A stretch of DNA of 64,000 nt from a candidate division FCPU426 bacterium (GCA_963830915.1 CAWHOE010000042.1:15186-79185), one strand, 5' to 3'; numbered from the stretch's first letter, positions 1-14,993 are shown. Translations and numbers: made by a program. Notes: a model not told the origin generated them from the letters alone.

Positions 1-1
1 T

Positions 2-1174
2 TACATCATGATTATCGACAAATCCCAATCGTATAAGACCCTTTGCCGCTTGGCGGGTGGCCGGTATCTCAACTACGACCTGGACAGCAAACATCACCTG
101 AATATTTTCGATTATCCCTTGGATGAGATTAAAGAGAAGGAAGGGGAGATCGACCCGGAGCATATTTCCAGCATCATCATGTATTTGGGGGTGGTGCTCG
201 CCAACATCAAGGAAAACCGTATCGAGGAAACGGAGGAATTGGACAAGGCACTGATTCAGGAAGCCGTCAAGCAGACCTACCTGAACACCCTCACTGAGAA
301 CCGGGTGCCTCTTTTAACCGACCTCAAGGAAACACTCTTGAAGAAAGCGGAGGACAAGAAAGTTCCCGCCGAGTTCCAATATCTCTGCCGCAAACAAGCA
401 GAAGTCTTAAAACTTTTCACCGGAAAGGGGATGTACGCCAACCTGACGGACAGGGAATCCACCATCAAAGCGGACAATTCATTCATCGTTTTCGACACGT
501 CAGGCATCAGCGACAACGACAAGAAGGCCGTGGGTTTGGCCGTATTCGTCATTTCCAATTACTGTCTTCAAAAGGCAAAACAGAACAAGGAATTGAACCG
601 GCTCTCCCAACTCGCCATGGACGAGTGCTGGTATTTGGCCCAATACCCGGCTGGTTTAGCTTTCCTTCTTAGAATCGCCAAGACCGCAAGGCATTTGAGA
701 CTTCAACCTATTTTCGCCACCCAGGAAATTGGGGAGTTTTTCGGGGTGAAGGGTGTTGAGGCGATCCTGAAGAACACATCAACCAAAATCCTCCTGAAGC
801 TGGTAGGGGACGACATTGAACACGCCAAAGGCCTGCTCCAATTGAATCCGACCCAAGTGGAAAAGGTCATGAATCTCCATTTGGTAAAAGGAGTCTATTC
901 CCAAGCCCTCATCCACCAGACCCTTCGGCAGGGAATCGTGAATATCTACCCCGACGAATTGGCCTACCACATCGCCACCACTTACGGGCCTGAAGCGGCA
1001 ATCCGTGACCTCTATCTGGACACTTACGCGCCGGATGAGGACCCGGTAGCGACTTTGGGAGCCATCGCCAAGTGGATAGAGGACAAGGAAAACAAAACGG
1101 TTTTAAAACCCACCCAAAAGGATAAAACCGGCCAAACGAGTTCGAAAAAACCGGACGAGGTATTAATGAAATGA
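2..1174 (+). CDS. Conjugative type IV secretion ATPase, VirB4/TrbE/TraC-like, C-terminal part (5' end lies outside window)
   Basis: Frame open from window edge; motifs MDECWYL (DEAW-type Walker B), IFATQ and basic RK segment typical of VirB4-family C-terminal ATPase domain. Confidence 0.6.
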   Translation, partial: YIMIIDKSQSYKTLCRLAGGRYLNYDLDSKHHLNIFDYPLDEIKEKEGEIDPEHISSIIMYLGVVLANIKENRIEETEELDKALIQEAVKQTYLNTLTENRVPLLTDLKETLLKKAEDKKVPAEFQYLCRKQAEVLKLFTGKGMYANLTDRESTIKADNSFIVFDTSGISDNDKKAVGLAVFVISNYCLQKAKQNKELNRLSQLAMDECWYLAQYPAGLAFLLRIAKTARHLRLQPIFATQEIGEFFGVKGVEAILKNTSTKILLKLVGDDIEHAKGLLQLNPTQVEKVMNLHLVKGVYSQALIHQTLRQGIVNIYPDELAYHIATTYGPEAAIRDLYLDTYAPDEDPVATLGAIAKWIEDKENKTVLKPTQKDKTGQTSSKKPDEVLMK

Positions 1175-1767
1175 CTGAACCGAAAAAGGAGGATGAACAT
1201 TCCATTCTTGACCTCATTGAGCAGGAGCCAAAGAAAAAGGGATACACCGGGAAAATCATCATTGGACTCATTGTGGCCGTGGTTGGTTTGGGTTCCACCC
1301 TCTTTTGGGGAAAAACCGCCCAAGTTGTTGATTCAAAGAAGGATGTTTCTGTGGGTAGTTCCCAAACGGTGGGGAAAGACCCCCAATACGGGGACGTAAC
1401 CGACTTCGCGGAGAAGTTCAGCATTATGGCTTTCAACATTAGTTATACGGACATCAACCATCAGGTGGACAAGGTGGCGGGTCTTATGAGTGACAACATG
1501 ATGTCCTATTACCAGGAAGCTTTTTTGGACCCCAAGTGGGTCGCCTTTCTATCGGATAACAAAGCTTATGTCTCCTACCAGCAGATCGACCGGTCGAGCG
1601 TGGAGAACACGGACGGGACCCATTACTGGGTGAAGGTTATCGGGAAGAACCTTTACAACTCGGATGCCAGGGGCCAAGGGTCACAGATTGAATTGCCTTT
1701 CCATTTAGTCGTAGTGGTCAAGAAGGACAACGGAAAACTTATTGTGACGGATTTCCAGAGGTTTTAG
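1171..1767 (+). CDS. Membrane-anchored conjugation-associated protein (single N-terminal TM + periplasmic domain; VirB8/TrbF-like layout, family not certain)
   Basis: ATGA overlap with upstream ATPase gene; TM segment IIIGLIVAVVGLGSTLFW; no catalytic motifs. Confidence 0.3.
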   Translation: MTEPKKEDEHSILDLIEQEPKKKGYTGKIIIGLIVAVVGLGSTLFWGKTAQVVDSKKDVSVGSSQTVGKDPQYGDVTDFAEKFSIMAFNISYTDINHQVDKVAGLMSDNMMSYYQEAFLDPKWVAFLSDNKAYVSYQQIDRSSVENTDGTHYWVKVIGKNLYNSDARGQGSQIELPFHLVVVVKKDNGKLIVTDFQRF

Positions 1768-1769
1768 CC

Positions 1770-3242
1770 ATGGAAGAGAATGTACTTCAAATCAACCCGG
1801 AATTAGCCAGGCGGTGCCTTCAGTCCGCCCATTTGTGCATGGAAACAAACCGGTTCAAAGAAGCCTTGAAGCTTTTTGACGAGATAATCGGAAAACACCA
1901 GCCTCAGAACGTGGAAGCTCACCTGGAATCCGCGAAGATATACGCCATATACAAACAGCCTAATTCCATCCTCAAAGTGATTAACCGGCTTCATAATTTT
2001 TCCCAGAAGACTCCGGAAAGCCTCGTTCTTCTTGCCCGCGCCCAACTTCAGATGAGCCTCTATTCCGATTGTCGGGAAAGTCTAAGGGAGATTTTTACCA
2101 TACAGAGGGATTTTCCTGAGGCAGTGGCTTTGGAGGGGGAATTGTGCATTAGGACGGCGAAATATGAAAGCGCCGTCGAGAAGTTCGAGTCCTTAAGCCT
2201 CCGTTATCCCAAAAATTACAACTATTTGACTTTCCTGGCCGTTTCCCATTTTGCCAGCGGCAAATTCCACCGGACCATCACCCTTTGTACCACCCTCATG
2301 CAAGCAGGGGTTTCAGACCCCAAAATCACCCGGCTTTATGAAATGGCGAAAACAAAAAGACGGCACGAGGCCTTGGGAAAGCTGAAAAAAGTAAAACCAC
2401 TCAAATGGCTGTTTGCCCAACTCTTCGATCCATTCCTGGAAAAGGAAATGAGGGCCGAATCGGAAAGCCAGACCACCCAGGAGGATCTTGTTCAGGAAAC
2501 CTTAGTGGACCACAGGACCGGCCTTTTGAACGATAGGGCGGCGATGCTGCAAATCCCAGCCCTTGCCGCCAGGAGAAAGAACCACTTTTACGTTGCCATG
2601 GCTGATATAGACTTTTTCAAATCCTTTAACGACGTCCATTACAACCACCAGGTCGGAAATTCCGTCTTGAAAGCCTTGGCAAAGGCGGGACAACAAATCT
2701 TCACCAAAAACAAAATTTGGCGTTACGGCGGTGAGGAAATCGTCTGGGTTCTGGACGGGTCAGAAGCCGAAGTCGTCGAAAAAGCCGAACAGTTCAGGAA
2801 GCAATGCGAGGAAAAAGTCGTGGGGGAAGCGAATGATATCAACCAAAAGGAGGACATCCGGCACTTCACGGACGGGTTGGACCATAAGAAGGACGACCCG
2901 TTCCTTATCCATTACCCGGTGACGATCAGCCAGGCCGTTGTGGAATGGGGGGAAGACGGGACAAATCTGGAAGGAATCCTAACGGCGGCGGATCACGGCC
3001 TTTACACGGCTAAGGAAGGCGGAAGGAACACGGTTGTTTTCCGGGGAACCCCCAGGTGCGTTGGGCTCAAGCCGGTCAAGTACACCCCCGAGATGCTTGG
3101 AATCCTTCACAAGTTTAGCGTCAAGAAAGGGTCCTCAAACTGGTGGGCCTATTTGGAGACTGTCGATGAGAAGGCGAAAAACGATGCTTTGGAATATGCC
3201 AGGAACACACTGGCCGACATGGAGGCGTTAAAGAAAAAATAG
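1770..3242 (+). CDS. TPR-like helical N-terminal domain fused to GGDEF (diguanylate-cyclase-like) domain, active-site variant GGEEI
   Basis: DHRTGLLN, FYVAMADIDFFKSFND, RYGGEEIVWVL, AADHGLYTAKEGGRN are GGDEF-family hallmarks. Confidence 0.75.
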   Translation: MEENVLQINPELARRCLQSAHLCMETNRFKEALKLFDEIIGKHQPQNVEAHLESAKIYAIYKQPNSILKVINRLHNFSQKTPESLVLLARAQLQMSLYSDCRESLREIFTIQRDFPEAVALEGELCIRTAKYESAVEKFESLSLRYPKNYNYLTFLAVSHFASGKFHRTITLCTTLMQAGVSDPKITRLYEMAKTKRRHEALGKLKKVKPLKWLFAQLFDPFLEKEMRAESESQTTQEDLVQETLVDHRTGLLNDRAAMLQIPALAARRKNHFYVAMADIDFFKSFNDVHYNHQVGNSVLKALAKAGQQIFTKNKIWRYGGEEIVWVLDGSEAEVVEKAEQFRKQCEEKVVGEANDINQKEDIRHFTDGLDHKKDDPFLIHYPVTISQAVVEWGEDGTNLEGILTAADHGLYTAKEGGRNTVVFRGTPRCVGLKPVKYTPEMLGILHKFSVKKGSSNWWAYLETVDEKAKNDALEYARNTLADMEALKKK

Positions 3243-3279
3243 TTTCGCATTGGTCATTAATTTCAAAAGGAGAAAGAAC

Positions 3280-3621
3280 ATGGGTTTAAAAGTCAGGATT
3301 ACCAGGATGTTTCCCTATGACGGGGAACACACGAAGGCTTTTGTTGGAGCCAAAGTCCAGATATCCGGTCGTGTTTTTGGTTACAACGAATTGACGCTCG
3401 TTAAAAAGAAAGAAGGGAATGGTTTGTTCCTGGGCCTTCCTTCTCGGCCTGGAAGGCAGGAGGGGGAGTATCACGATATTTGTTACATGGACGCGAACAC
3501 GCGAAAAGATATTGAGAAAGTCGCAATCGCCGAGTACGAGAAGAAAATCAAGGAAAGCGCACAGGTGCCCATAGGGGATAACCAAGGAGTGAGGGTAGAA
3601 CGGAGAAAAGTGAAAAGGTGA
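3280..3621 (+). CDS. spoVG: SpoVG-family nucleic-acid-binding regulator (paralog 1)
   Basis: NGLFLGLPSRPGRQEGEYHDICYMDANTRKDIE matches SpoVG core ([25 protein letters not shown]); RBS aaaggag upstream of ATG 3280. Confidence 0.7.
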   Translation: MGLKVRITRMFPYDGEHTKAFVGAKVQISGRVFGYNELTLVKKKEGNGLFLGLPSRPGRQEGEYHDICYMDANTRKDIEKVAIAEYEKKIKESAQVPIGDNQGVRVERRKVKR

Positions 3622-3652
3622 CGGGCGAAATAAAAATCAATGGAGGCAACAA

Positions 3653-3955
3653 ATGGCTTTAAAGATCAGTGTCACTAGGATGTATCCCTATGAAGGGGAG
3701 AATACCCAGGCGTTTTTCGATGTTAAGGTCGCAATATCGAGTTACGAGTTCTTCTTCAACGACCTAACTTTGGTGAAGAAGAAGGATGGCGATGGGTTAT
3801 TTGTGGGTTTCCCATCCAGGCCGGGCAAAAAGGATGGGGAGTATTTCCACTTCTGCAACGCCAACAAGAAAGCCAAGGAAGAGATCGAAAAGGCGGCTGT
3901 TGCGGAGTTTAAAAAGAAATCCAAGGCCAAGGAAACCGCCCCAGCCAAGGAATAA
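3653..3955 (+). CDS. spoVG: SpoVG-family protein (paralog 2) with Lys/Ala-rich tail
   Basis: DGLFVGFPSRPGKKDGEYFHFCNANKKAKEEIE; tandem with paralog 1. Confidence 0.7.
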   Translation: MALKISVTRMYPYEGENTQAFFDVKVAISSYEFFFNDLTLVKKKDGDGLFVGFPSRPGKKDGEYFHFCNANKKAKEEIEKAAVAEFKKKSKAKETAPAKE

Positions 3956-3977
3956 TCCAGGGGTTTTGGAGAGAAGA

Positions 3978-4241
3978 ATGGAAGACAGGAGAAGATGGGA
4001 CCGAAGAAGAAAGGCCCAGGATTGCCTGATGTCAGATAGTCAAATAGCCGATTTGGCGGGGGTTTCCAAACACACCGTTAAATTTTGGCGTCTGGCTGGG
4101 ACCATCCCTTATGTGAAGGTTGGGCGTCACCCGAGGATTTGGCTTTCGGCCTTCCAAAAAGTTTTCCATCAACCTGATCCAAGCGGACCTTGGGAATTGT
4201 CCCCTAAGTTTGGTAAAATACCAAACGGCAAGGGACATTAG
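3978..4241 (+). CDS. xis: Excisionase / AlpA-Xis family helix-turn-helix DNA-binding protein
   Basis: SQIADLAGVSKHTVKFWRLAGTIPYVKVGRHPRIW is an excisionase-type HTH; sits immediately 5' of integrase. The listed ORF 3786-4241 overlaps SpoVG in another frame, so the shorter start is preferred. Confidence 0.55.
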   Translation: MEDRRRWDRRRKAQDCLMSDSQIADLAGVSKHTVKFWRLAGTIPYVKVGRHPRIWLSAFQKVFHQPDPSGPWELSPKFGKIPNGKGH

Positions 4242-4249
4242 GAGGCAGT

Positions 4250-5320
4250 ATGAGCAAGCCTAATGTTCACGGATTGCCCCAACATCTTCGGAGAGATGAA
4301 GGGGGATATTTCCTGGATTTTTTTGTCCAGGAAGAAGGGGTTAAAAAACGTAAAAGGGTGCGTTTGGGACAGATACCTTTGCCTCAGGCAAAGAAGGTCT
4401 TGGCCCAACACATGCAAGAGATCGTTGAAAACAGTTATTTGGCGCAGGATAAGCCGAAGATCACTTTCAACGAAGCCGCCGATTCCTTTATGGATTATTC
4501 GGTGTCCAGGAAGAAAAGTTTTCATAGGGATAAGTATTACGTGGCAAACCTAAAGGCGTTTTTCGGTGACAAGCCTTTGGACAGCCTGAATCTTGACCTT
4601 GCGGAAAAATATCTGACCTGGAGAAGGAAAACCGGAAAACCCAAAGGGGAGGAGATGAAGGCGGCCACGCTCAACCGGGATATTGCCTGCTTAAAAACCA
4701 TCGTGAATAGGGCGAAGTTAAACAGGCAGATTGACAGGAATCCAATCGAGGGGATCAGGTTGTTTAAGGAAATCCCCAGGGATAGGACACTTACCCCGGA
4801 AGAGTTTAAGCAACTCTTGGAATGCTGCCCGCCCCACCTTAAATCAATGGTCGAGTTGGCTTATTACACGGCCATGAGAAAGGGTGAAATCCTAGGGCTA
4901 AGATGGGAACAAGTGGATTTCCAAAAAGGGGTTATTTTTCTTGAGGCGGAGGATACGAAAACTCAAGAAAAGCGGGAAATACCAATTGATGAGAAATTGA
5001 AGCAAATCATCAAGAAGATTCCCAAGACCTTAGGAAGCCAGTTAGTTTTCACTTACAAAGGAAAAAGGCTAACGGCTTGCAGGACCGGGTTTAAAAGCGC
5101 TTGTGAAAAGGCCGGATTGGGAAATTTCCATTTCCACGACCTTCGTCATTGTGCGATAACGAATATGCGCAAAGCGGGGGTGCCGGATTCGGTCATAATG
5201 AGTGTTAGCGGACACAAAACTAACGCGGTATTTCGGCGATATGACAAGATTGATAGGGAAGACCGAAAATTGGCGTTGGAGCGGGTCCGGGAGTTCAATG
5301 ACACCAAGTTTGGAAGCTGA
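4250..5320 (+). CDS. int: Tyrosine site-specific integrase (phage integrase family), copy 1
   Basis: C-terminal catalytic motifs HDLRHCAI, SGHKT, VFRRYDK (R-H-R-Y tetrad); N-terminal SAM-like domain. Confidence 0.9.
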   Translation: MSKPNVHGLPQHLRRDEGGYFLDFFVQEEGVKKRKRVRLGQIPLPQAKKVLAQHMQEIVENSYLAQDKPKITFNEAADSFMDYSVSRKKSFHRDKYYVANLKAFFGDKPLDSLNLDLAEKYLTWRRKTGKPKGEEMKAATLNRDIACLKTIVNRAKLNRQIDRNPIEGIRLFKEIPRDRTLTPEEFKQLLECCPPHLKSMVELAYYTAMRKGEILGLRWEQVDFQKGVIFLEAEDTKTQEKREIPIDEKLKQIIKKIPKTLGSQLVFTYKGKRLTACRTGFKSACEKAGLGNFHFHDLRHCAITNMRKAGVPDSVIMSVSGHKTNAVFRRYDKIDREDRKLALERVREFNDTKFGS

Positions 5321-5501
5321 TTGACACGGGAATGACAAACGCCCTTTTCTGGGCGGGGAAGGAGAGGGATAAAAGTTCGTTTTCCGCTTTAGCTGTAAGG
5401 GTTTTAGAAGATTTAAGAAGAGAAGATCAAGCCAACCATTGCGACCCTCAAAATCTATCGGGAGCAATCCCATGTCGGTTCAAGTCCGACCTCGGGCACC
5501 A
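5321..5501 (+). mobile_element. Integrase-distal junction: conserved int-downstream segment ending in a 30-nt tRNA 3'-end fragment (att core) ...ATGTCGGTTCAAGTCCGACCTCGGGCACCA
   Basis: T-arm GTCGG-TTCAAGT-CCGAC + acceptor 3' strand CTCGGGC + A + CCA. No matching 5' acceptor strand upstream, so fragment only. Same segment repeats at 14474-14654. Confidence 0.6.
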
Positions 5502-5550
5502 ATTTTCTTTTTTCGTTCAACAAAAAAGCTAAAAAATAATTTTTCCTGTG

Positions 5551-5579
5551 AACTTCCGAACTTGTCGGAAGTTTTTTTG
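5551..5579 (+). terminator. Rho-independent terminator
   Basis: AACTTCCG-aacttgt-CGGAAGTT followed by TTTTTT. Confidence 0.6.
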
Positions 5580-5843
5580 TTTGTGTCAATGGCCCTCCCA
5601 ATTGCGAATGACACGCATATGACAAGAATTTCGAAAGAAAAATCTATTGAGGTTATGTGTTTCGGAAAACATTTGTTTTGGGCGTGTAATTAAAAATTAT
5701 TCCCTACAAGACCATAGGGCTCAGTAGACTTTCTGTAACGTGTGCTGGTCGATTTTTTCCCTAATAAGCTTGTCAATTATGCTTGTGCGAAATTAGAATT
5801 TTTATGTTTGCATCTAAAGTTCTTTCGGGTAAAGGACAACGTA

Positions 5844-6107
5844 ATGAGAACTAAGGGATGTAGAAAACTAGGGGCCAAACTATTGACTGTTGGGTTGAAT
5901 TCTGGAAAAGCGGAGCTGTTCCAGGAAGCGGTTGTGGAAATAGTAGAGCAACTTGGTGGGGTTGAAGCCTTTGCGAAGAAAGCGAAAATGTCGGTACGGG
6001 AATTGAAAAGGGCCTTAGCTAGTCGAGAGGCCTTTCAAAGATGGGTGGATATAGCCAAGGTGGTAAAGGCTCTGAGTGAAAGCCGGATGGCATTTTATGC
6101 AAAATGA
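5844..6107 (+). CDS. Hypothetical small protein, possible HTH/antidote-like
   Basis: ORF with RBS; weak resemblance to addiction-module antidote proteins (GGVEAFAKKAKMSVRELKRAL). Confidence 0.3.
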   Translation: MRTKGCRKLGAKLLTVGLNSGKAELFQEAVVEIVEQLGGVEAFAKKAKMSVRELKRALASREAFQRWVDIAKVVKALSESRMAFYAK

Positions 6108-6156
6108 GCAAAATTTCCCGCTATTCAGGATATAACAATAATGTTATATTTAATCC

Positions 6157-6504
6157 ATGAAGGTTGATCTGTTTAGAAGTTCATCGGGGCGGTCGCCCGT
6201 TGAGGATTTTATCAGTAACCTTTCTAAAGAGGATCAGGCCCTTTTTAAGACTATCCATGACGGGATAGAGCGGGAAGGCTTGAAATATCCATACGTTATT
6301 TTCAAACCCTTAGAAGGGAAGCTCTGGGAGATCAAATTTAAGGGTTTGGACGGTTCTTACCGGATTGGCTATGTTTTGGTGACGGGGCCAAAGATGTTTT
6401 GGCTTCATGTTTTTAAAAAGAAAACGCAGAAGATATCCAGGCTGGACTTTGAGTTGGCCTGGAAGCGGATGAAGGAGATTTTGGAATATGAAAAAAACTC
6501 ATAA
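6157..6504 (+). CDS. RelE/ParE-superfamily toxin, phage Gp49-like / HigB-type
   Basis: About 115 aa, Gp49-like (DUF891) composition; 17-nt overlap with downstream XRE-HTH gene. Confidence 0.55.
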   Translation: MKVDLFRSSSGRSPVEDFISNLSKEDQALFKTIHDGIEREGLKYPYVIFKPLEGKLWEIKFKGLDGSYRIGYVLVTGPKMFWLHVFKKKTQKISRLDFELAWKRMKEILEYEKNS

Positions 6505-6802
6505 ACCCTACACGGACGGAAAAGCCTTTTTCCACAAGTTGGAAAAAGACCCTGAAATTCGTATTTTGGTAAAACAGCAAGAAGAAAAGTTTCGCCTTGC
6601 CACTGCGATCAAAAGAGCCCGAGAACATGCAGGATTAAGCCAAGTTGCTTTGGCTAAGAAAATTGGAACCAAACAAAGCGCAATTTCTCGTGCGGAAAGC
6701 GGTGTTTACCGCTCGGTGCCTTCCTTGAGTTTCCTACAGAAAATTGCGGCGGCCTGCGGGGCTCATTTAGGCATTACATTTGATTTCCGTAAGGCCAGTT
6801 AG
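6488..6802 (+). CDS. XRE-family HTH antitoxin (HigA-like)
   Basis: AREHAGLSQVALAKKIGTKQSAISRAESG is a canonical XRE helix-turn-helix; toxin-then-antitoxin order as in HigBA. Confidence 0.6.
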   Translation: MKKTHKPYTDGKAFFHKLEKDPEIRILVKQQEEKFRLATAIKRAREHAGLSQVALAKKIGTKQSAISRAESGVYRSVPSLSFLQKIAAACGAHLGITFDFRKAS

Positions 6803-6934
6803 TATTTCATCGGCCTTCTTTTCCTTGAGCCCCAAAGCCCGCAAAGAGTGTACGCCATTAGTTTGGACGATGAATAAAGTCAATGATCTTATTCATTGGA
6901 CCCCGATTTAAAAAGAGTATAATAAATTCAACCT

Positions 6935-6987
6935 AAGGGGATGGAGTTCTCCCAAAACCGCCAATTCAATTGGACGATGACTCCTAC
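6935..6987 (+). promoter_or_regulatory. Fluoride riboswitch (crcB RNA motif) aptamer
   Basis: GGGGAUGGAGUUCUCCC-AAAACCGCC-...-ACGAUGACUCCUAC matches conserved GGnGAUGGnGUUCnCC / AAACnGC / AUGAnUCCUAC blocks of the crcB motif; TATAAT-like box at about 6915-6922. Confidence 0.85.
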
Positions 6988-7030
6988 TGCATGATGAAAC
7001 ATGCGGTGGGGCCATGTACTAACAAGTCAA

Positions 7031-7056
7031 ACCCGCCGCCCGGCGGGTTTTTTTAT
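7031..7056 (+). terminator. Intrinsic terminator forming the riboswitch expression platform
   Basis: ACCCGCCGCCCGGCGGGT followed by TTTTTTT, lying between aptamer and first ORF. Confidence 0.7.
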
Positions 7057-7098
7057 TTCCCGCCCTTTCATCCTGCAAGTAAATCTTGGAGGCGGGAT

Positions 7099-8316
7099 AT
7101 GACCCACGTTTGGGCGGAAGCTACGTTGTGGATCGGGTTGGCGCTGGTCGCAGTACTCATTTCCATCTGGCTAAAAATTGCCACAGCCTTATCGGAGATT
7201 GTGGTCGGTACGGTGGCACAACTGGTAATCGGGGCCTTAGTAGGTCAGGCTTTTTTAGGCACAAGCGAAAGTTGGATTACCTTCTTAGCGGGTGCGGGCT
7301 CCATCGTTCTGACTTTCCTGGCTGGGGCCGAGCTGGACCCGGTGGTGTTCAAGGCCAAGTGGAAGGAAGCTTCGCTTTTGGGGCTGGTGGCTTTTTTCGC
7401 TCCTTTCCTGGGATGCACGGCAGCCGCCTTTTACCTGCTTCACTGGAATCCTCAGGCCTCTTGGCTGGCTGGCGTAGCCCTTTCCACCACCTCCGTGGCG
7501 GTAGTTTATGCCGTGATGCTGGAACTCGGATTAAACAAGACCGAATTCGGAAAAATCATCTTGGCCGCCTGTTTTATCAATGACCTTGCTACGGTCATCG
7601 CGCTTGGGCTTATCTTCGCGCCATTTACCCTCAAGACTCTCGTCTTCGTGGGTGTCAGCGTTCCTGTCTTTTTTATCCTTCCTTGGCTTACACCCCGGTT
7701 CTTTAAATTGTATGGTGACCGTCCCTCGGAATTGGAAACCAAATACCTCTTGTTCCTCATGTTTGGACTGGGGGCTTTGGCGACTTGGGCCGATAGCGAA
7801 GCAGTTCTTCCGGCCTACCTTATTGGAATGGTTTTGGCAGGAACAGTCGGCAAAGACCATGTCTTGGTACGCCGCTTGCGAACCGTAACTTTTGGACTGC
7901 TGACGCCGTTTTATTTCATTCGGGCAGGTTCCTTCGTATCAGTTCCCGCCCTGGTGGCCGCTCCCCTGGCTTTCGTGGTCCTGCTTTTGGCAAAGATGGG
8001 AAGTAAGTTTGTGGGTGTTTTTCCCGTCACGAAATACCAGGGTTATGCCCATAAAGAAGGAATGTACACAACCCTTCTGATGTCCACGGGGCTCACCTTT
8101 GGCACCATTTCAGCATTGTTTGGATTATCACACCACGTTATCGACCAAACCCAATATTCGTTTTTGGTGGCTACCGTTATTTTGAGTGCGGTAGTGCCGA
8201 CGCTTATCGCCAACGCCTATTTCTTACCGCACTATCTTTTGCCTAAAGTCCACAAACCTGAGGCTGAAGTCGTTCCATTGGCCCCAAATAACTCAGAAAA
8301 CGGAGGCGCTTTATGA
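7099..8316 (+). CDS. Cation:proton antiporter (CPA1/CPA2-type Na+/H+ exchanger)
   Basis: About 12 TM helices; family-typical glycine-rich helices; GGAGG RBS 6 nt upstream of ATG 7099. The listed ORF start at 6970 would run through the riboswitch terminator. Confidence 0.8.
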   Translation: MTHVWAEATLWIGLALVAVLISIWLKIATALSEIVVGTVAQLVIGALVGQAFLGTSESWITFLAGAGSIVLTFLAGAELDPVVFKAKWKEASLLGLVAFFAPFLGCTAAAFYLLHWNPQASWLAGVALSTTSVAVVYAVMLELGLNKTEFGKIILAACFINDLATVIALGLIFAPFTLKTLVFVGVSVPVFFILPWLTPRFFKLYGDRPSELETKYLLFLMFGLGALATWADSEAVLPAYLIGMVLAGTVGKDHVLVRRLRTVTFGLLTPFYFIRAGSFVSVPALVAAPLAFVVLLLAKMGSKFVGVFPVTKYQGYAHKEGMYTTLLMSTGLTFGTISALFGLSHHVIDQTQYSFLVATVILSAVVPTLIANAYFLPHYLLPKVHKPEAEVVPLAPNNSENGGAL

Positions 8317-8732
8317 TTCCCCAAAAAATCCTGGTGGCATTTGATGGTTCGATCCATTCCGAGAAATCTTTTCAATATGCCCTTGAGACGGCTAAACGTT
8401 TTCAGGCTTCCTTGTTAGTGCTTTCCGTTGCCCCGATTCCAGAATTTGACATCGCTGTAGAGATGGAATCGGTGTTGGAATCCGCCCAAGAGCATTTCGA
8501 GGAGCAATTCAAGGATCTGAAAAAAAAGGCCGAAGTGGCTGGGGTTTCCTTGACTACGGAGGTCGTGGTTGGTCATCCCGCCGAACACATCATCCGAAAA
8601 GCAATTGATGAAAAAATCGATTTGATCGTTGTGGGTCATCGGGGCAAGAGCAAGATTGGCGAATGGCTCTTAGGATCGGTAGCTAAACGCGTTTCTAGCT
8701 ATGCTCCCTGTGCGGTCACGATAGTACGATAA
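8313..8732 (+). CDS. uspA: Universal stress protein UspA family
   Basis: ILVAFDGS...IVVGHRGKSKIGEWLLGSVAKRV ATP-binding Usp motif; ATGA overlap with antiporter. Confidence 0.8.
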   Translation: MIPQKILVAFDGSIHSEKSFQYALETAKRFQASLLVLSVAPIPEFDIAVEMESVLESAQEHFEEQFKDLKKKAEVAGVSLTTEVVVGHPAEHIIRKAIDEKIDLIVVGHRGKSKIGEWLLGSVAKRVSSYAPCAVTIVR

Positions 8733-8744
8733 AGGAGGCTGATA

Positions 8745-9125
8745 GTGAGCTTAAGCCAGTTTTTTTTCATCGTCACTGGTGCGTCCATCGGGGCTTTGAG
8801 CCGTTTTGGTTTAGGTCTATGGGTGACCGCTAAATTAGGGTCGAATTTCGCTTATGGTACTTGGTTTATCAATTTGATCGGATCTTTTGTACTGGGATTA
8901 TTTTTGACCCTTCACTTGGACAGGGGATTGTTCCATCCTAATGTTCGATATTTCGTGGCTGTCGGATGGTGTGCTTCCTTTACCACTTATTCGACCTTCA
9001 GTTGGGAGACTTTCCGGTACTTCCAGGAAGGAGACTTTATGAGGGCGGGTTTGAATGTCACCTTGACCTTGGTAGGTTGTTTTTTGGCTTCATGGGGCGG
9101 TGTTGTTGTGGCAAGACTGTTGTAA
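8745..9125 (+). CDS. crcB: Fluoride ion channel CrcB/FluC
   Basis: GALSRF...GTWFINLIGSF...TTYSTFSWE motifs of Fluc family; 4 TM; GTG start with AAAGGAGG RBS. Confidence 0.85.
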   Translation: MSLSQFFFIVTGASIGALSRFGLGLWVTAKLGSNFAYGTWFINLIGSFVLGLFLTLHLDRGLFHPNVRYFVAVGWCASFTTYSTFSWETFRYFQEGDFMRAGLNVTLTLVGCFLASWGGVVVARLL

Positions 9126-9143
9126 AAAGAAGGAGGGCTCAAT

Positions 9144-9515
9144 ATGGACGTTATAGGTAAATGCAAGGTACTCCGCGTTTATGTGGACGAAGAACTGAAG
9201 TGGAAAGGCAAACTCCTTTACAAAGCTATCGTGGATCGGTTGTTGGCGGAAAAAGTGACCGCTGGTGCGACGGTCTTCAAGTGTGTAGAGGGCTTTGGGT
9301 CTTCTTCACATCTTCACACCAGTCGTATCATTGAAGTCATGGAAGAATTGCCCATGATCATCGAAATAGTGGACAAGCCTAATCGAGCCTTGAAGGCCCT
9401 GAACATTATCGAGGAAATGCTTCCAAACCATTGCTTGGTGACAGTTCATGAAACCCAGGTGCTTCATTATCACAAGGCGGACGGCAAGCATACCAAGACG
9501 AAGAAGTGGAAATAA
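9144..9515 (+). CDS. DUF190 (PII-like) protein commonly found in fluoride-riboswitch regulons
   Basis: VLRVYVDEELKWKGKLLYKAIVDRL...GATVFKCVEGFGSSSHLHTSRIIEV...PMIIEIVD matches DUF190 consensus. Confidence 0.8.
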   Translation: MDVIGKCKVLRVYVDEELKWKGKLLYKAIVDRLLAEKVTAGATVFKCVEGFGSSSHLHTSRIIEVMEELPMIIEIVDKPNRALKALNIIEEMLPNHCLVTVHETQVLHYHKADGKHTKTKKWK

Positions 9516-11224
9516 AAATGAAGGATTTTCCGGGTCAGGATGGCAATTCCACGCCAAGCCTCCCGAATGATTCTCGGACTATTTTTACTGAAGCGGGGGA
9601 TATCCTGTCATTTGCGGATTCCATCGCCCGCCGCTGGGGTATTTCAGTTCTTCTACCTCAAATCTATAATTTATCCGAATTTATAAATGAATCCGATTCC
9701 GTGGATGTGGTCTTGTTGGGAAGATTCAAGGCGGGAAAAAGTTCAATCTTGAACGCCTTATTGGGCAGGAATATTTTTCCGGTCGATGTCCTGCCGGCAA
9801 CTGCGGTCATAACCCGCGTGTCCGGCGGGTTGACTGATCACGTGAGTGTTTTGTACAGGGACGGGCACTTGGAAACGGTGCCCTTGAGTGAAATTAAAGA
9901 ATATGTCACCGAAAGGGGAAACCCCCAAAATATCAGGAAAGTCGTTAGGGTTGAAGTTCGTGCGACTGGCTTGCGATCTTTTGGCGGGATTCGGTGGGTG
10001 GATTCGCCTGGTCTCGGAAGCCTGCATGCAAGCAACACCGAAGCGACTTTGGATTGGCTCCCTAGGGTGGGAGCTGCCCTGGTGGCGGTAGCCGTGGATC
10101 AGCCTCTTGGCGAAGAAGATCGGGTTCTTCTTCGCAAACTGGAGGAACAAACCCCGTTTATTGTGATTCTTTTAACTAAGGCCGATCTAATATCTGGAGA
10201 ACAATTGGAATCGGTCGTTCAATATGTCGATTCGCAATTGACAGAGAATTTTGAGAGGGAATTGCCAGTTTTTCCCGTTTCAACCCGACCTGGGTACGAA
10301 GAATCCGTTTCAAGACTTAAAAACAGCCTCCAAGCCAGACTTGGAGGGAACCGCACCAGTGAAGAAAACAAGATTATCCTCTACAAATTAGAAGCCATCC
10401 TGAAAAACTGCCGGGGTTACCTGGGGCTTTCACTCCGAGCCGCCCGTTCCGGGACTTTATCCGGGACGAAGCTTTCCCAAGCCATTGAAGAGGAATGGGT
10501 CTTCCTTTCCACTTTAGAGGATAATTTCCATCTGGTGGTGGATCAGTCAAGTCGTCGAATCCGGGAGTCTCTTGAGAGCTGTTTCGTTTCAAAGTCGCAG
10601 GAGTTGACCCGTAAGCTCCAAAGGGAATTGAAAGAGAAACTTTTGGGTTGGCGGGGAAATTTAGCCGAGGAAAGCAGGTGGTTTCAGGAATGGCTCGATT
10701 CCCAGTTGGTTTCCGAGTTGGACCGATTGGGCCGGGAAAACCAGGATGTTTGGAAGGTCCATGTCCGGAAAGTGGAGGGCGGTCTCAACCGGGATCTCCA
10801 GGCCTTTGGGGACCGGATTTCGATCAAAATTAAGGAAGCCCTTCAATACGAATACGCCGGGACTTCCTTTGAGGCAAAGTCGACCCCTTTGGAAAAGCCA
10901 AGCACCCATCTTGACAGGGTATTTGATACGCCCTTTGAAATCATATGGTTCCTAATTCCAATGCCGGTCTTCCGGGTTCTGGTTCACAGGCATTTCATCA
11001 ATTCCTTGCCGTGGCAGGTCGAAAAACATCTTTACCGTTTATCGTCGGAATGGACGGAGAGAATCATGGATTCCATCCAGGGAATGATGGAAAAGGCCGG
11101 AAAGCATGTTCGGGACGAGTTGGAGTCCCTCGCGAACCTTTTGAAGGAAAGGATGGATGCAAGTGGAAGTATTGAGAAAGATTTGGGCCGATTAGGCGAG
11201 TTGGAGAGTTTAATCCGTTTATGA
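9506..11224 (+). CDS. Dynamin-family large GTPase (bacterial dynamin-like protein)
   Basis: G1 GRFKAGKSSILNALLG, G3 DSPG, G4 TKAD; long helical stalk; start overlaps DUF190 stop (alternative ATG at 9518). Confidence 0.75.
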   Translation: MEIKMKDFPGQDGNSTPSLPNDSRTIFTEAGDILSFADSIARRWGISVLLPQIYNLSEFINESDSVDVVLLGRFKAGKSSILNALLGRNIFPVDVLPATAVITRVSGGLTDHVSVLYRDGHLETVPLSEIKEYVTERGNPQNIRKVVRVEVRATGLRSFGGIRWVDSPGLGSLHASNTEATLDWLPRVGAALVAVAVDQPLGEEDRVLLRKLEEQTPFIVILLTKADLISGEQLESVVQYVDSQLTENFERELPVFPVSTRPGYEESVSRLKNSLQARLGGNRTSEENKIILYKLEAILKNCRGYLGLSLRAARSGTLSGTKLSQAIEEEWVFLSTLEDNFHLVVDQSSRRIRESLESCFVSKSQELTRKLQRELKEKLLGWRGNLAEESRWFQEWLDSQLVSELDRLGRENQDVWKVHVRKVEGGLNRDLQAFGDRISIKIKEALQYEYAGTSFEAKSTPLEKPSTHLDRVFDTPFEIIWFLIPMPVFRVLVHRHFINSLPWQVEKHLYRLSSEWTERIMDSIQGMMEKAGKHVRDELESLANLLKERMDASGSIEKDLGRLGELESLIRL

Positions 11225-11269
11225 GCCGGTTTTGGCATTGGGCGTTCATTACTTTTAAGGAGAAGTTAA

Positions 11270-12544
11270 ATGGCAAAGATATCCTCGGTTAAGGCAATGG
11301 AAATTTTGGACTCAAGGGGAAACCCGACAGTGAGGGTTTGGGCGGAATTGGAAAGCGGCGTGAAGGTTTCAGCTTCCGTGCCTTCCGGCGCTTCCACGGG
11401 AGAAAACGAAGCGGTAGAGCTTCGGGACGGGGACAAGAAACGCTTCGGCGGGAAAGGGGTCCTGAAAGCCGTTGAGAACGTGAACAAGGTGATTGCCTCG
11501 GCTATCAAGGGAATGGATGCGGAGCGGCAGGCGGAGTTGGACCGGCGCATGATCGAGTTGGATGGCACTCCCAACAAGGCCAAATTAGGGGCCAATGCCA
11601 TCCTGGGGGTTTCCATGGCGGTGGCGCGGGCGGCGTCGGTCGAAGCCGAAATTCCCCTTTATTCATATCTTGGAGGAACGGGAGCCGTAAGGCTTCCAGT
11701 TCCCCAGATGAACATCCTCAATGGGGGTAAGCACGCGGACAACAGCGTTGACTTCCAGGAATTCATGGCTATGCCGATAGGCGCTCCCAATTTTACAGAA
11801 GCCCTTCGGTGGGGGGCCGAGGTTTTTCATGCCTTGAGGGGTATCTTGCACCAAAAGAAATATGCGACGGGGGTGGGGGATGAGGGTGGTTTCGCGCCGA
11901 ATTTAAAAAGCAATGAGGAGGCTGTGGAGGTGATTGTCCAGGCCATCGAGGTGGCGGGCTATAAGCCGGGCAGGGATGTCGCCATAGCACTGGACCCTGC
12001 GGCCAGTTCCTTTTACGAGAAAGGGGTTTATGCACTGACCAAGTCAGGGCAAGGGAACAAATCCAGCAAAGAAATGACCGAACTTTACAAGGGATGGGTT
12101 GAGAAATTTCCCATTGTTTCCATCGAGGATGGGTTGGATGAGAACGATTGGGATGGTTTCAAGGAACATACGGCGGTCCTGGGGGGCAAGATCCAGATTG
12201 TTGGGGATGACATTTACGTTACGAACACGAAGTTTATCGCTCGTGGCATCAAAGAAAAAACCACCAATTCAGTACTGATAAAGCTCAACCAGATTGGTAC
12301 GGTCACGGAAACTATTGAGGCTATTCAACTCTGCCGCAAGGCTGGGTGGAGTTATGTCATCTCCCACAGGTCGGGGGAAACCGAGGACGCCTTCATGGCG
12401 GATTTCGCGGTCGCCATGGGGGGTGGACAGATCAAGACCGGATCGGCTTGCCGGAGTGAAAGAATCGCTAAGTACAACCGTCTCTTGGAAATAGAAGCCG
12501 AATTAGGCAAATCTGCGGTCTTCGGTAATCCATTCAAGGAATAG
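11270..12544 (+). CDS. eno: Enolase (phosphopyruvate hydratase)
   Basis: Full-length enolase signature ([31 protein letters not shown]). Confidence 0.95.
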
Positions 12545-12554
12545 GGGAAGGCCT

Positions 12555-13226
12555 TTGGAAAAACACACTCCATACTTCAAGGTTTTGGAAACCATTCAAA
12601 AAAGCCGGGATTGCGGGTTGTGTGTTCTGGAAAAGGGAGCGGTTCATTCCTATTTTGAGGCATTCCTTTACGAGAATGTGAATGACCATGGTGCCCGCGA
12701 AGCCTTGCGGGCTTCCAGGGGTTGGTGCCCGTTTCATGCACACCACTTGATTGGATTCCACGACACCCTTGCACTTTCCATCCTCTTCAAAGAACAGGCG
12801 CTCCTTGCCGGGTATTTTCTTGAGAAACAGATGGAGAAAACACACTTCTTTTCAGAATGGGTCAGCCATGCAAAGTGTCCTGCGTGTATCCAAACCATAC
12901 AGATACGACAGCATTACCTTGCTATCTTGGTGAAGGGATTAATAGAGGAAGAGGAAATGCGTTCGGCTTTTTTTGGGAATTTTCATGTCTGCCTCAATCA
13001 TTTTATGTTGGTAGTGGACGCGCTGTCGGACGATGCCTTCAAGAGGCAATTGGTGGACCGGATGTGGCAACGCCTAGCCGATTTGGCTGGACGACTGGAA
13101 CAATATTGCCAGGACTGCCAGATAAACGCGGCGGGTGAAACTTTCGATTCACCCCACCGCTATGCTTGGAAGGAAGCTGTTGAGACAGTTGCCGGGTTGA
13201 AAGACGTTTTCGAGTCGCCGTTGTAA
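12555..13226 (+). CDS. Cys-rich hypothetical protein (CGLC, WCPFH, CPAC, CLNH, CQDC motifs; metal-binding candidate)
   Basis: ORF immediately after eno, same strand; paired CxxC motifs. Confidence 0.45.
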   Translation: MEKHTPYFKVLETIQKSRDCGLCVLEKGAVHSYFEAFLYENVNDHGAREALRASRGWCPFHAHHLIGFHDTLALSILFKEQALLAGYFLEKQMEKTHFFSEWVSHAKCPACIQTIQIRQHYLAILVKGLIEEEEMRSAFFGNFHVCLNHFMLVVDALSDDAFKRQLVDRMWQRLADLAGRLEQYCQDCQINAAGETFDSPHRYAWKEAVETVAGLKDVFESPL

Positions 13227-13402
13227 TAAGACCCGTTATCGTTTTTGGTTCCCAGAACCCCATAAGTTTTTTCGGGAGATCATCAAAGGAAAAGAAAAAG
13301 TGAGGTGGGGGTGTTACTTCCTATGCCCCTAGGGAAAGTTGCTTTTGAATCTATCCTCAATCCTGGTAAAATGCCAAACAGCAAGGGACATTAGGAGGCA
13401 GT

Positions 13403-14473
13403 ATGAGCAAGCCTAATGTTCACGGACTTCCCCAACATCTTCGGAAAGATAGCGGGGGATATTTCCTGGATTTTTTTATCCAGGAGGAAGGGGTTAGTAA
13501 ACGTAAAAGAGTGCGGTTGGGACAGATTCCTTTGCCTCAGGCAAAGAAGGTCTTGGCTCAACACATGCAAGAAATCGTTGAAAACAGTTATTTGGCCCAA
13601 GAAAGGCCGAAGATCACTTTCAACGAAGCCGCTGATTCCTTTATGGCTTATTCGGTGTCCAGGAAGAAGAGTTTTCATAGGGACAAGTATTACGTGGCAA
13701 ACCTTAAGTCTTTTTTTGGTGACAAGCTTTTGGAGAGCCTGAACCTTGACCTTGCTGAAAAGTATTTAACTTGGAGAAGGAAAACCGGAAAACCCAAAGG
13801 GGAGGAAATGAAGGCGGCAACGCTCAACCGGGATATTGCCTGCTTAAAGACGATTATTAATAGGGCGAAGTTAAACAGGCAGATCGACAGGAATCCAATC
13901 GAGGGGATCAGGTTGTTTAAGGAAATCCCCAGGGATAGGACCCTAACCCCGGAGGAGTTCAAACGGCTTTTGGAATGCTGTCCTTCCCACCTGAAATCAA
14001 TGGTCGAGTTGGCTTATTACACGGCCATGAGGAAAGGTGAAATCCTAGGGATGAAATGGGATCAGGTAGATTTCCAAAAAGGGGTTATTTTTCTTGAGGC
14101 GGAGGATACGAAGACTCAGGAAAAGAGGGAAATACCGATTGATGAGAAATTGAAGGAAATCATCAAAAAGATTCCCAAGACCATAGGAAGCCCGTTTGTT
14201 TTTACCTATAAAGGGAAAAGGCTAACGGCTTGCAAGACCGGGTTCAAAAACGCTTGTCAAAAGGCTGGATTGGGAAATTTCCATTTTCACGACCTTCGCC
14301 ATTGCGCAATCACGAATATGCGCAAAGCGGGGGTGCCGGATTCGGTCATAATGAGCGTCAGCGGACACAAAACCAACGCGGTTTTCAGGCGATATGACAA
14401 GGTGGATAGGGAAGACCGAAAATTGGCGTTGGAGCGGGTCCGGGAGTTCAATGACACCAAATTCGGGACCTGA
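13403..14473 (+). CDS. int: Tyrosine site-specific integrase, copy 2 (about 89% identical to copy 1)
   Basis: Same motifs as 4250-5320; homology begins about 30 nt upstream of ATG (ggtaaaatRccaaacRgcaagggacattaggaggcagtATG). Confidence 0.9.
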   Translation: MSKPNVHGLPQHLRKDSGGYFLDFFIQEEGVSKRKRVRLGQIPLPQAKKVLAQHMQEIVENSYLAQERPKITFNEAADSFMAYSVSRKKSFHRDKYYVANLKSFFGDKLLESLNLDLAEKYLTWRRKTGKPKGEEMKAATLNRDIACLKTIINRAKLNRQIDRNPIEGIRLFKEIPRDRTLTPEEFKRLLECCPSHLKSMVELAYYTAMRKGEILGMKWDQVDFQKGVIFLEAEDTKTQEKREIPIDEKLKEIIKKIPKTIGSPFVFTYKGKRLTACKTGFKNACQKAGLGNFHFHDLRHCAITNMRKAGVPDSVIMSVSGHKTNAVFRRYDKVDREDRKLALERVREFNDTKFGT

Positions 14474-14654: not shown

Positions 14655-14684
14655 AATTTCTCCAATTTAAAATATATTATTGAA

Positions 14685-14920: not shown

Positions 14921-14993
14921 CGCTCCACTTGACATCGAAAAGGAAATGGATAATTATGTATATAGAAGTAAATAACTATATACGGAATTATCC

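Follow-up and report, generated by a model that had tools for sequence, protein, structure and literature searches.

The window analysed here is the whole 64,000-nt stretch of DNA from a candidate division FCPU426 bacterium (GCA_963830915.1, CAWHOE010000042.1:15186-79185). All genes described for positions 2-5320 were found at the places given, on the + strand, and the features of this end of the window are the following:

2..1174, + strand, VirB4/TraC-type ATPase, C-terminal 390 aa (PF19044 57 bits; TIGR02746 117 bits)
1171..1767, + strand, 198-aa protein with one N-terminal hydrophobic segment (synteny; conserved in every family locus)
1770..3242, + strand, TPR-GGDEF protein, 490 aa, cytoplasmic (PF00990 65 bits; TIGR00254 81 bits)
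2658..2660, + strand, Asn297 codon, the PleD Asp344 / GacA Ser348 position (HMM alignment to PleD)
2727..2741, + strand, GGEEI active-site motif, residues 320-324 (motif comparison in the family)
3280..3621, + strand, SpoVG-like protein 1, 113 aa (PF04026 30.5 bits, cut-off 29.6)
3653..3955, + strand, SpoVG-like protein 2, 100 aa (PF04026 27.3 bits, just under the cut-off of 29.6; AF2 model and Foldseek)
3978..4241, + strand, Xis, excisionase-type HTH protein, 87 aa (PF12728 HTH_17 27 bits; TIGR01764 24.6 bits)
4250..5320, + strand, tyrosine integrase, 356 aa (PF00589 106 bits; phrog_1 239 bits)
5321..5339, + strand, arm-type repeat TTGACACGGGAATGACAAA, putative integrase arm site (P arm), directly 3′ of the int stop codon
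5447..5501, + strand, att core, 3′ part of a tRNA-Leu(CAA)-like gene (read from sequence)
5550..5584, + strand, the sole strong intrinsic terminator on this strand in 1-6200 (10-bp stem, then a T run)
5608..5626, + strand, second arm-type repeat ATGACACGCATATGACAAG, past the att core (motif comparison)

All seven gene calls of the sequence-only reading (VirB4 fragment, membrane protein, TPR-GGDEF protein with GGEEI, two SpoVG-like proteins, xis and int) were reproduced, and its picture of a type IV secretion module adjoining an xis-int recombination module on a mobile island was supported. The window begins inside the VirB4 gene, whose counterpart in locus L002 (99% identical) encodes 857 aa. 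A full-length homologue scored 173 bits against the Mbov_0397 ICE VirB4 family and 171 bits against F-type TraC, in both cases far below the equivalog cut-offs. The start of the 198-aa gene overlaps the VirB4 stop codon (ATGA). Its product gave no family match in Pfam, NCBIfam, PHROGs or PADLOC and none in a PDB profile search. From its architecture, a VirB8-like protein would be only a guess, and this identity was dropped for lack of Pfam, NCBIfam or PDB-profile support. The start of Xis was chosen in the light of L002 and L012, whose homologues have 91-92 aa. From VirB4 to int, the intergenic gaps measure -4, 2, 37, 31, 22, and 8 nt, and the strong + strand terminator is found only after the att core, with none before the att site. 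From the spacing and the absence of terminators only, we infer that the array may be co-transcribed. A prophage reading was discarded, as no phage structural matches were obtained and the PHROGs matches were limited to integrase and excisionase.

The att core spans the anticodon loop, variable arm, T arm and acceptor strand, up to the CCA. ARAGORN and Rfam called no tRNA at the core, and with the 5′ half missing from the sequence, an intact tRNA at the att site was rejected. Homology between the core and its copy behind the second integrase ends just past the CCA, and an identical 25-mer of the core also lies behind int in three related loci (L001, L013, L023). In most related loci int is directly followed by a motif related to the putative P arm, GACACGNATA[AT]GACA; the two sites behind int in the window (5321-5339 and 14474-14492) are more diverged versions of it. 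Sharing this att site, a further island with its own integrase lies in tandem in the window, and the repeat at 5608..5626 is read as the P′ arm belonging to that next island of the array. The order of int, P arm, tRNA-like core, terminator and motif recurs in L011, L019, L023, L102, and L103, and the arm-type motif was present only at the right ends of elements. BLAST comparison of right-end att regions with as much as 20 kb of sequence preceding the GGDEF gene (L102 vs. L097, L006 vs. L106, and L017 vs. L107) gave no significant direct repeat, and inspection of candidate left junctions in L106 and L107 revealed nothing.

The related loci come nearly all from MAGs of candidate division FCPU426, two of which hold five copies each. 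VirB4, the membrane protein and TPR-GGDEF are encoded in the same order in 24 of 24 loci. One or two SpoVG-like genes follow in all 21 loci that extend past the GGDEF gene, and xis and int come next in most of the 24. The same gene order was observed in extra contigs, including the divergent branch L109. The conserved backbone comprises ~14 kb and begins with a divergently oriented XRE-type HTH gene. Its rightward array opens with a surface protein, a DNRLRE lipoprotein, a porin-like protein and several small envelope proteins, continues with TrbL/VirB6, a 96-aa VirB3-like protein, VirB4 and the 198-aa membrane protein, and closes with TPR-GGDEF, one or two SpoVG-like proteins, Xis and Int, followed by att (a tRNA gene or a 3′ tRNA fragment). 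Variable content is located upstream of the HTH gene and consists mostly of defence genes (type I R-M, BREX, AbiE, DUF1156/DUF499). The integrases have diverged to 56-98% identity, VirB4 remains at 77-99%, and the copies occupy different tRNA sites; the divergence of the integrases vs. the conserved secretion block, together with the multiple tRNA sites, indicates frequent independent mobility. TPR-GGDEF homologues form a close set of 57-100% identity, after which there is a drop to ~30% for generic GGDEF proteins. For both the TPR and the GGDEF parts dN/dS is 0.05-0.06, i.e., strong purifying selection. A SpoVG-like ORF within 10 kb was found in none of 57 unrelated GGDEF loci, which agrees with the earlier remark that the pairing is uncommon. 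The GGDEF and SpoVG-like genes had also been described as cargo. In view of their invariant position, their tight translational packing with the secretion genes, and a dN/dS of ~0.05 for the GGDEF gene, they are rather to be regarded as fixed core genes of an FCPU426 mobile island family. PADLOC gave no match for the GGDEF, SpoVG-like or 198-aa proteins at E ≤ 0.01, and a defence-system role of the GGDEF/SpoVG genes was dropped on this account.

In the TPR-GGDEF protein, about five TPR pairs (residues 10-180) are joined by a helical linker to the GGDEF domain (~245-430), into which ~30 aa are inserted at 350-381; a conserved extension of three helices follows at the C-terminus (440-489), and there is no RxxD I-site. 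Its AF2 model (pLDDT 80, with substrate loop residues 284-291 below 50) retrieved the diguanylate cyclases SiaD, DgcZ, and Dcsbis in Foldseek, with TM of 0.75-0.8 on target, and PDB profile matches of the GGDEF domain (PleD, WspR and others) reached E-values down to 1e-17. Loss of the catalytic residues would have spoken against the earlier GGDEF assignment. In the profile alignment with PleD they are retained: D279/D281, N287, G320-G321-E322-E323 (within the RYGGEEI motif, residues 318-324), K415 and R419 correspond to PleD D327, N335, GGEEF, K442, and R446 (for their roles, see PMC7288161). D279, N287, GGEE, K415, and R419 are invariant in 18 aligned members with identity down to 57%, so that the metal-binding Asp (PleD D327), the base-binding Asn (N335), the phosphate-binding Lys/Arg (K442, R446) and the catalytic residues are all kept in the family. 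The guanine-reading Asp (PleD D344) is not: its place is taken by Asn297, and Asn is found here in 46 of 46 family proteins vs. Asp in 83 of 83 comparison GGDEF domains. This position (S348 in GacA) reads the Watson-Crick face of the substrate base (PMC6456294, PMC7288161) and takes part in specificity (PMC6456294), and PleD D344 was reported to be essential for activity (PMC7288161). The substrate loop shows in addition a one-residue insertion and a GH to NH change.

The fifth residue of the family motif is I, L, M or V (GGEE[ILMV]), never F. GGEEI had been put forward as the unusual trait of the protein; yet I, L, V or M occupies this position in 17 of the 83 comparison domains, a set with a bias, IWRYGGEE having been one of the two patterns used to collect it. 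GGEEI was dropped as the main oddity, and the distinctive change is the Asp to Asn replacement (46/46 vs. 0/83). With the Hypr GGDEF enzymes (GacA of Geobacter, Bd0367 of Bdellovibrio; PMC6456294, PMC9140294) the family shares a natural substitution at the same base-reading position with the other catalytic machinery kept. Hypr enzymes, however, combine Ser/Thr at the GacA 348 position with only GGDE[F/Y] (PMC6456294), whereas the FCPU426 family has Asn and GGEE[ILMV]. The family hence falls outside the Hypr GGDEF enzymes, and its product is not predictable from the Hypr rule. No cyclic-dinucleotide receptor (PilZ, MshEN or similar) was recognised among the backbone proteins.

The two SpoVG-like genes are ~50% identical to each other. 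The proposed membership in PF04026 was borne out at the Pfam threshold for the first copy; the second misses it by 2 bits, and for this one the family assignment is supported by fold evidence. Its AF2 model (pLDDT 73) matched SpoVG structures only (2i9z/2ia9, Foldseek probability 1.0, TM 0.6-0.7; next match at E ~2), and the SpoVG-like family profile also matched only SpoVG in the PDB (2ia9, 2i9z, 2i9x; E ~3e-3). Both domain calls, GGDEF and SpoVG, were correct. Most loci with a single SpoVG-like gene have the paralogue type of the second protein. Among 1.84 billion representatives, an exhaustive search yielded only 113 matches at E ≤ 1e-3, and the more distant sequence relatives are Pfam SpoVG proteins. 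By tblastn, no match to the SpoVG-like genes was obtained on known plasmids or phages. There was a lone weak PHROG match, to a PHROG of unknown function. Known members of the SpoVG family bind DNA/RNA. The FCPU426 proteins resemble SpoVG of Bacillus, Staphylococcus, and Borrelia (PF04026) in the succession of a beta-sheet and a C-terminal basic helix and in the length of ~100 aa. They differ in being very divergent, at or just below the Pfam cut-off, and in the location of their genes, which are not chromosomal housekeeping genes but belong to a mobile element, where they immediately precede xis-int and often form a pair of paralogues.

The VirB4 fragment and its membrane partner had been taken to show that the island is conjugative, an ICE or IME. 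The integrase and att site expected of an ICE are present (PF00589 106 bits, Xis upstream, a tRNA-Leu 3′ fragment, arm repeats), and so are VirB4 (PF19044, TIGR02746, NF045975) and other mating-pair-formation genes, namely TrbL/VirB6 (PF04610 35.5 bits) and, in L011/L002, the 96-aa VirB3-like membrane protein with envelope proteins. Searches of the conserved ~14 kb of backbone and of eight independent left flanks (2-10 kb each, from L083, L092, L097, L106, L107, L108, L109, L110) detected neither a relaxase (MOB) nor a type IV coupling protein (VirD4/TraG/TcpA type); the sole P-loop ATPase found was VirB4. Housekeeping-type genes lie within a few kb in 4 of the 8 flanks. Because relaxase and coupling protein were not found in the backbone or in these flanks, the ICE status of the island family is unproven, and the earlier claim goes too far.

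To the best explanation as a whole we give an even chance. It holds that positions 2-5501 are the right-hand end of an integrative element of an FCPU426 lineage-specific family, in which the core cyclase and SpoVG-like genes are expressed with the secretion machine and the excision genes. The HTH repressor would hold the array silent, and induction would give one transcript encoding the cyclase, the envelope machine and the SpoVG-like proteins as well as Xis and Int, of which the last two would cut the element out at its att site in tRNA-Leu. The cyclase, produced alongside the secretion and excision proteins, would most likely yield a cyclic dinucleotide signal. Dimerised or docked via its TPR domain, it would form most simply c-di-GMP and, having no I-site, would therefore do so without product feedback; with Asn invariably in place of the base-reading Asp, its specificity for the base may be relaxed or altered. 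The signal could then switch host surface behaviour or the machine itself, in favour of cell contact. As to the SpoVG-like proteins, one may speculate that they act in the element as small nucleic-acid binders, either tuning the expression of the adjacent xis-int or coating DNA/RNA.

These genes can be explained in other ways. We hold it to be very improbable that the GGDEF and SpoVG genes were inserted as accessory cargo where the transfer module of an ICE/IME meets its recombination module, and serve entry exclusion or host modulation as do the diguanylate cyclases in the variable regions of SXT/R391. Cyclases borne by ICEs and genomic islands do alter biofilm formation and motility (PMC10672970, PMC2791158), PF04026 was reported to be enriched on mobile elements of gut Firmicutes (PMC6907783), and the genes are located at the junction of two modules. 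However, they keep the identical position in every family locus, the divergent branch included, are tightly packed and under strong purifying selection, and belong, in the case of TPR-GGDEF, to a family known in this context only, while the real variation between elements lies upstream of the HTH gene. Such evidence bears on accessory status and not on host modulation as output. We find it unlikely that the GGDEF domain, with the base-reading Asp replaced, is not a cyclase here and serves as a nucleotide-binding or purely structural module. TPR-GGDEF would then be a cytoplasmic adaptor of VirB4, possibly substituting for the coupling protein, and the SpoVG-like proteins would bind the nucleic acid that is moved. 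A residue described as essential (PMC7288161) is replaced in all members, the substrate loop carries an insertion and is poorly modelled, and coupling protein and relaxase were not found in backbone or flanks. Moreover, besides VirB4, HTH, Xis and Int, only TPR-GGDEF and the SpoVG-like proteins are cytoplasmic in the backbone, and the TPR part weakly matches type III secretion TPR chaperones (SctY 32 bits, LcrH/SycD 20 bits, both below cut-off). Yet a scaffold would have no need of the metal-binding, phosphate-binding and catalytic residues, which are invariant down to 57% identity. Asn is also a conservative hydrogen-bonding substitute that could still read a purine, and degenerate GGDEF domains usually lose the GG[DE]EF motif itself (PMC7288161).

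Doubtful, too, is a secretion module that serves DNA uptake, protein secretion or adhesion instead of conjugation, on a genomic island mobilised in trans or by transformation/transduction, where the GGDEF protein would regulate a surface machine. The gene content agrees with such a system, since VirB3-like, VirB4, VirB6 and envelope proteins occur without relaxase or coupling protein, VirB4 falls far under every conjugation-specific equivalog cut-off, and a distant homologue of the lipoprotein was found without VirB4 (L104/L105). The ComB DNA-uptake type IV system of Helicobacter pylori is similarly VirB4-centred, with VirB3-like, VirB4, VirB6 and envelope proteins and with neither relaxase nor coupling protein. 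ComB is, however, chromosomal and not linked to xis-int, and VirB4-family membership is the only sequence relation to the FCPU426 machine that was shown. On the other hand, the five copies per genome at different tRNA sites and the integrases more diverged than VirB4 point to mobility, the machine and xis-int invariably share one array, the best VirB4 matches are conjugative ATPases, and a relaxase could be non-canonical or encoded outside the sampled flanks. Self-transmission without canonical relaxase and coupling protein, with the invariant cytoplasmic trio next to VirB4 (the Asn-variant GGDEF cyclase with its TPR adaptor domain, the SpoVG-like binders, and Xis/Int) as a new licensing or coupling solution for DNA transfer, appears to us quite improbable. 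One possibility for it would be a private non-c-di-GMP cyclic dinucleotide gating the machine, another the direct recruitment of the substrate.

ICEs with tandem tRNA accretion share with the FCPU426 islands a tyrosine integrase with Xis, a displaced tRNA 3′ fragment as att, arm-type repeats, a machine built on VirB4, defence genes as cargo and, in tandem at the same att, another island with its own integrase. The FCPU426 islands differ in that relaxase and type IV coupling protein were not detected in them and in a secretion-system type that current models fail to classify. Members of the family occur in multiple copies, have diversified in integrase and tRNA target and bring defence systems with them; relaxase and coupling protein are seemingly missing. 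Should this absence hold, it would bear on the movement of DNA in an uncultured phylum of soil and peat bacteria about which little is known.

Diguanylate cyclases on mobile elements are already known, as optional cargo. Like DgcK/DgcL of SXT/R391 and the cyclase of a Vibrio alginolyticus island, the FCPU426 protein is a GGDEF enzyme on an integrative mobile element, for which altered biofilm, motility or contact behaviour of the host would be a plausible output. In contrast to those enzymes, which are encoded in accessory, variable regions and have canonical active sites, the FCPU426 gene is invariant inside a secretion-excision array, and its product has a TPR input domain, no I-site and Asn at the guanine-reading position. 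A cyclase fixed within a putative operon for secretion and excision suggests that making a second messenger belongs to the life cycle of the element, and the family-wide Asp to Asn change at the specificity position offers a defined, readily testable candidate for altered nucleotide specificity.

The genes at 2-5320 are part of an integrative type IV secretion element into which an atypical GGDEF enzyme and SpoVG-like proteins are built. The gene calls of the sequence-only reading (VirB4 fragment, membrane protein, TPR-GGDEF protein, two SpoVG genes, xis and int) were upheld by ORF listing and HMM scans. The following features were found in and directly behind the array.

2-1174, + strand: VirB4/TraC-family ATPase, last 390 codons
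1171-1767, + strand: 198-aa protein with a single N-terminal hydrophobic segment, its ATG overlapping the VirB4 stop
1770-3242, + strand: TPR-GGDEF protein, 490 aa
3280-3621 and 3653-3955, + strand: two SpoVG-like genes
3978-4241, + strand: excisionase-type HTH gene (xis)
4250-5320, + strand: tyrosine integrase gene (int)
directly 3′ of the int stop: arm-type repeat TTGACACGGGAATGACAAA
5447-5501: truncated tRNA-Leu(CAA)-like gene, its 3′ part retaining the anticodon loop, a long variable arm, the T arm and the acceptor strand with CCA

From VirB4 to int the genes are spaced by -4, 2, 37, 31, 22 and 8 nt, and the single strong + strand terminator within 1-6200 lies at ~5550-5574. The 5′ half of the tRNA gene is absent at 5447-5501, where neither ARAGORN nor Rfam gave a tRNA call. 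The observation made from the sequence alone is thus confirmed, and its interpretation is supported in part.

We read 5502-14654 as a second island, devoid of a secretion system, that was integrated at the same att site in tandem with the first. Its integrase is 93% identical to the first, and homology between the two int-att modules ends just past the CCA. The arm-type motif occurs again past the first core, at 5608-5626, as it does in five related loci (L011, L019, L023, L102, and L103). No xis was found within 5502-14654, whose features are as follows.

6157-6802: HigB-like (Gp49)/HTH antitoxin pair
6928-6993: fluoride riboswitch (49 bits)
after the riboswitch: genes for a Na+/H+ exchanger, Usp, CrcB, DUF190, a dynamin-like GTPase, enolase and DUF6062
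13403-14473: second integrase gene
14600-14654: second tRNA-Leu 3′ fragment

The two tRNA-Leu fragments are identical in T arm and acceptor strand and show compensatory differences in the variable-arm hairpin (GGGAGCAATCCC at 5459-5473 vs. GACCTCACGGTC at 14612-14626); they therefore stem from different tRNA-Leu copies, one element-borne and one chromosomal. Directly 3′ of the second att core, a 120-bp unit is repeated 1.9 times (14686-14909, 87% match).

A homology search with the TPR-GGDEF protein returned about 46 proteins at 57–100% identity, followed by generic GGDEF proteins at about 30%. Scanning one genome per species gave 23 family loci, nearly all in FCPU426 MAGs, two of which carry five each. 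The order VirB4, 198-aa protein, TPR-GGDEF and one or two SpoVG genes was seen in every locus, usually with xis and int next, and further contigs, among them a divergent branch, share it. All 21 loci reaching beyond the GGDEF gene contained a SpoVG-like ORF, compared with 0 of 57 unrelated GGDEF loci, so outside this family the pairing is uncommon, as had been proposed. Together with a dN/dS of 0.05–0.06 in both the TPR and GGDEF parts, this constancy contradicts the earlier description of these genes as cargo: they are element backbone. It is the integrase that is the variable partner, being 56–98% identical between loci or swapped for a distant type, and the tRNA target also varies (Leu-CAA fragment, Leu-CAG, Phe-GAA, or a Gly-Cys-Val cluster). 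In some family members an intact tRNA, Leu-CAG in L006/L009 and Phe-GAA in L102/L103, comes just 3′ of int and is co-oriented with it, its 5′ end thus pointing at the element. This contrasts with the displaced 3′ fragment of the window and is unusual among tRNA-targeting integrases.

Some loci depart from the common form. In L012, L017/L107 (19570-19923), L022, and L024, the genes for the 198-aa and GGDEF proteins are separated by an extra ORF of ~117 aa, whose 30–38% identity to the N-terminal TPR portion of the GGDEF protein suggests a partial duplication. Decayed copies were seen in L018, L110, L019, L020, L022, and L024. L018 has a truncated VirB4 of 572 aa with TonB-receptor, ExbBD and UmuDC genes on its flanks; the L110 copy is fragmented. 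Several decayed copies have frameshifts in the VirB4, 198-aa or GGDEF gene, possibly caused by long-read sequencing errors.

The upstream backbone could be followed in L002, a 99%-identical locus, and in others. It encodes a variable surface protein, a DNRLRE-domain lipoprotein, a porin-like 405-aa protein, small envelope proteins (one of them bPH_2), a TrbL/VirB6 protein (PF04610, 35.5 bits), a 96-aa VirB3-like protein and the 857-aa VirB4. Against the Mycoplasma-ICE VirB4 family and F-type TraC alike, this VirB4 reaches about 170 bits, far under both equivalog cut-offs. Left of the backbone stands a divergent XRE-type HTH gene, past which the content is unlike in every locus: type I R-M (L092), BREX pglZ/brxL (L097), an NYN protein (L083), AbiE (L106), HigBA-like and unknown genes (L107), or DUF1156/DUF499 (L108). 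Housekeeping-type genes (among them SOD, AhpC, ferritin; cell-envelope sugar genes; HtrA; trpDG/sucCD) lie 2–7 kb from the HTH gene in L106, L107, L109, and L110. A left att copy was not found by att-region comparison, motif search or junction inspection of the upstream flanks; neither a relaxase nor a coupling protein was found in the backbone or in the eight left flanks sampled, and the claim of their absence is therefore confined to these sequences.

The family profile of the TPR-GGDEF protein aligns with PleD, WspR, DgcZ and others. In its AF2 model (pLDDT 80), five TPR pairs are followed by a helical linker, a GGDEF domain into which about 30 residues are inserted, and three helices that extend the C terminus; Foldseek matched the model to diguanylate cyclases. 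The catalytic residues, whose loss on alignment was to be checked, are kept: D279, N287, G320-G321-E322-E323, K415, and R419 correspond to D327, N335, GGEE, K442, and R446 of PleD (roles in PMC7288161) and do not vary in the family. No RxxD I-site is present in the protein. The family differs from canonical diguanylate cyclases at the position of PleD D344 and GacA S348, which reads the Watson-Crick face of the base and determines specificity (PMC6456294): Asn was found in 46/46 family proteins vs. Asp in 83/83 comparison domains. At the fifth motif position the family has I, L, M or V and never F, but the same residues occur in 17 of the 83 comparison domains, a set biased because IWRYGGEE was one of two search patterns; hence the isoleucine of GGEEI, earlier called unusual, is not the distinguishing trait. 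Nor is the domain of the Hypr type, which combines Ser/Thr with GGDE[F/Y], whereas the family has Asn with GGEE[I/L/M/V].

As for the SpoVG-like proteins, the first copy passes the PF04026 cut-off of 29.6 bits (30.5 bits), while the second falls below it (27.3 bits). With the family profile, SpoVG structures were the sole matches in the PDB, and the AF2 model (pLDDT 73) matched only SpoVG (2i9z/2ia9; probability 1.0, TM 0.6–0.7), the next-best match having an E of about 2. When 1.84 billion representatives were searched exhaustively with HMMER, just 113 proteins reached E<=1e-3, and the remoter ones among them are ordinary Pfam SpoVG proteins. Judged by profile and model, the pair are genuine, very divergent SpoVG-fold proteins. 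Enrichment of PF04026 on mobile elements has been reported (PMC6907783).

Most likely, a rightward operon under a repressor would jointly express the envelope machine, the cyclase, the SpoVG-like proteins, and Xis and Int. The cyclase would lack product inhibition, so that a cyclic dinucleotide would rise when the element excises; this signal would alter host surface behaviour or gate the machine, and nucleic acid beside xis-int would be the target of the SpoVG-like proteins. Enzyme activity, product and targets are what we infer here; element-borne diguanylate cyclases that alter biofilm formation and motility provide a precedent (PMC10672970, PMC2791158). Since Asn replaces a residue reported as essential, the GGDEF domain may instead serve as an adaptor or receptor. 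Likewise, with no relaxase or coupling protein found in the backbone and the sampled flanks, the secretion machine may not conjugate, and the earlier statement that the island is shown to be conjugative is not supported.

Defence-rich variable regions adjoin the elements in L092, L097, L108, L011 (13.6–21.3 kb), and L019 (13.9–21.3 kb), with type I R-M, BREX (pglZ/brxL), DUF1156/DUF499 with HEPN and a JAB/E1-like cluster. The tRNA sites concerned have the look of defence-island hotspots. Behind the second att core of the window stands an AbiEi/AbiEii pair (14994-16552; PADLOC 235 and 327 bits). L023 has a closely similar one (13629-15172) after att core and arm motif, and in L106 a different AbiE-type pair (6255-8140; AbiEi_2 and a weak AbiEii match) immediately borders the HTH/secretion module on its left. 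These positions suggest AbiE as a left-end marker for elements of this kind. The DNRLRE lipoprotein has a 49%-identical homologue (database protein P0173; L104/L105) in another small-gene cluster, which is without VirB4, adjoins a kdp operon and lies near a DUF6876 gene. In P0175, a giant database protein of 5048 aa, 56 separate stretches match positions 19–63 of the SpoVG-like profile; it may be a repeat protein of beta-hairpin-like units.
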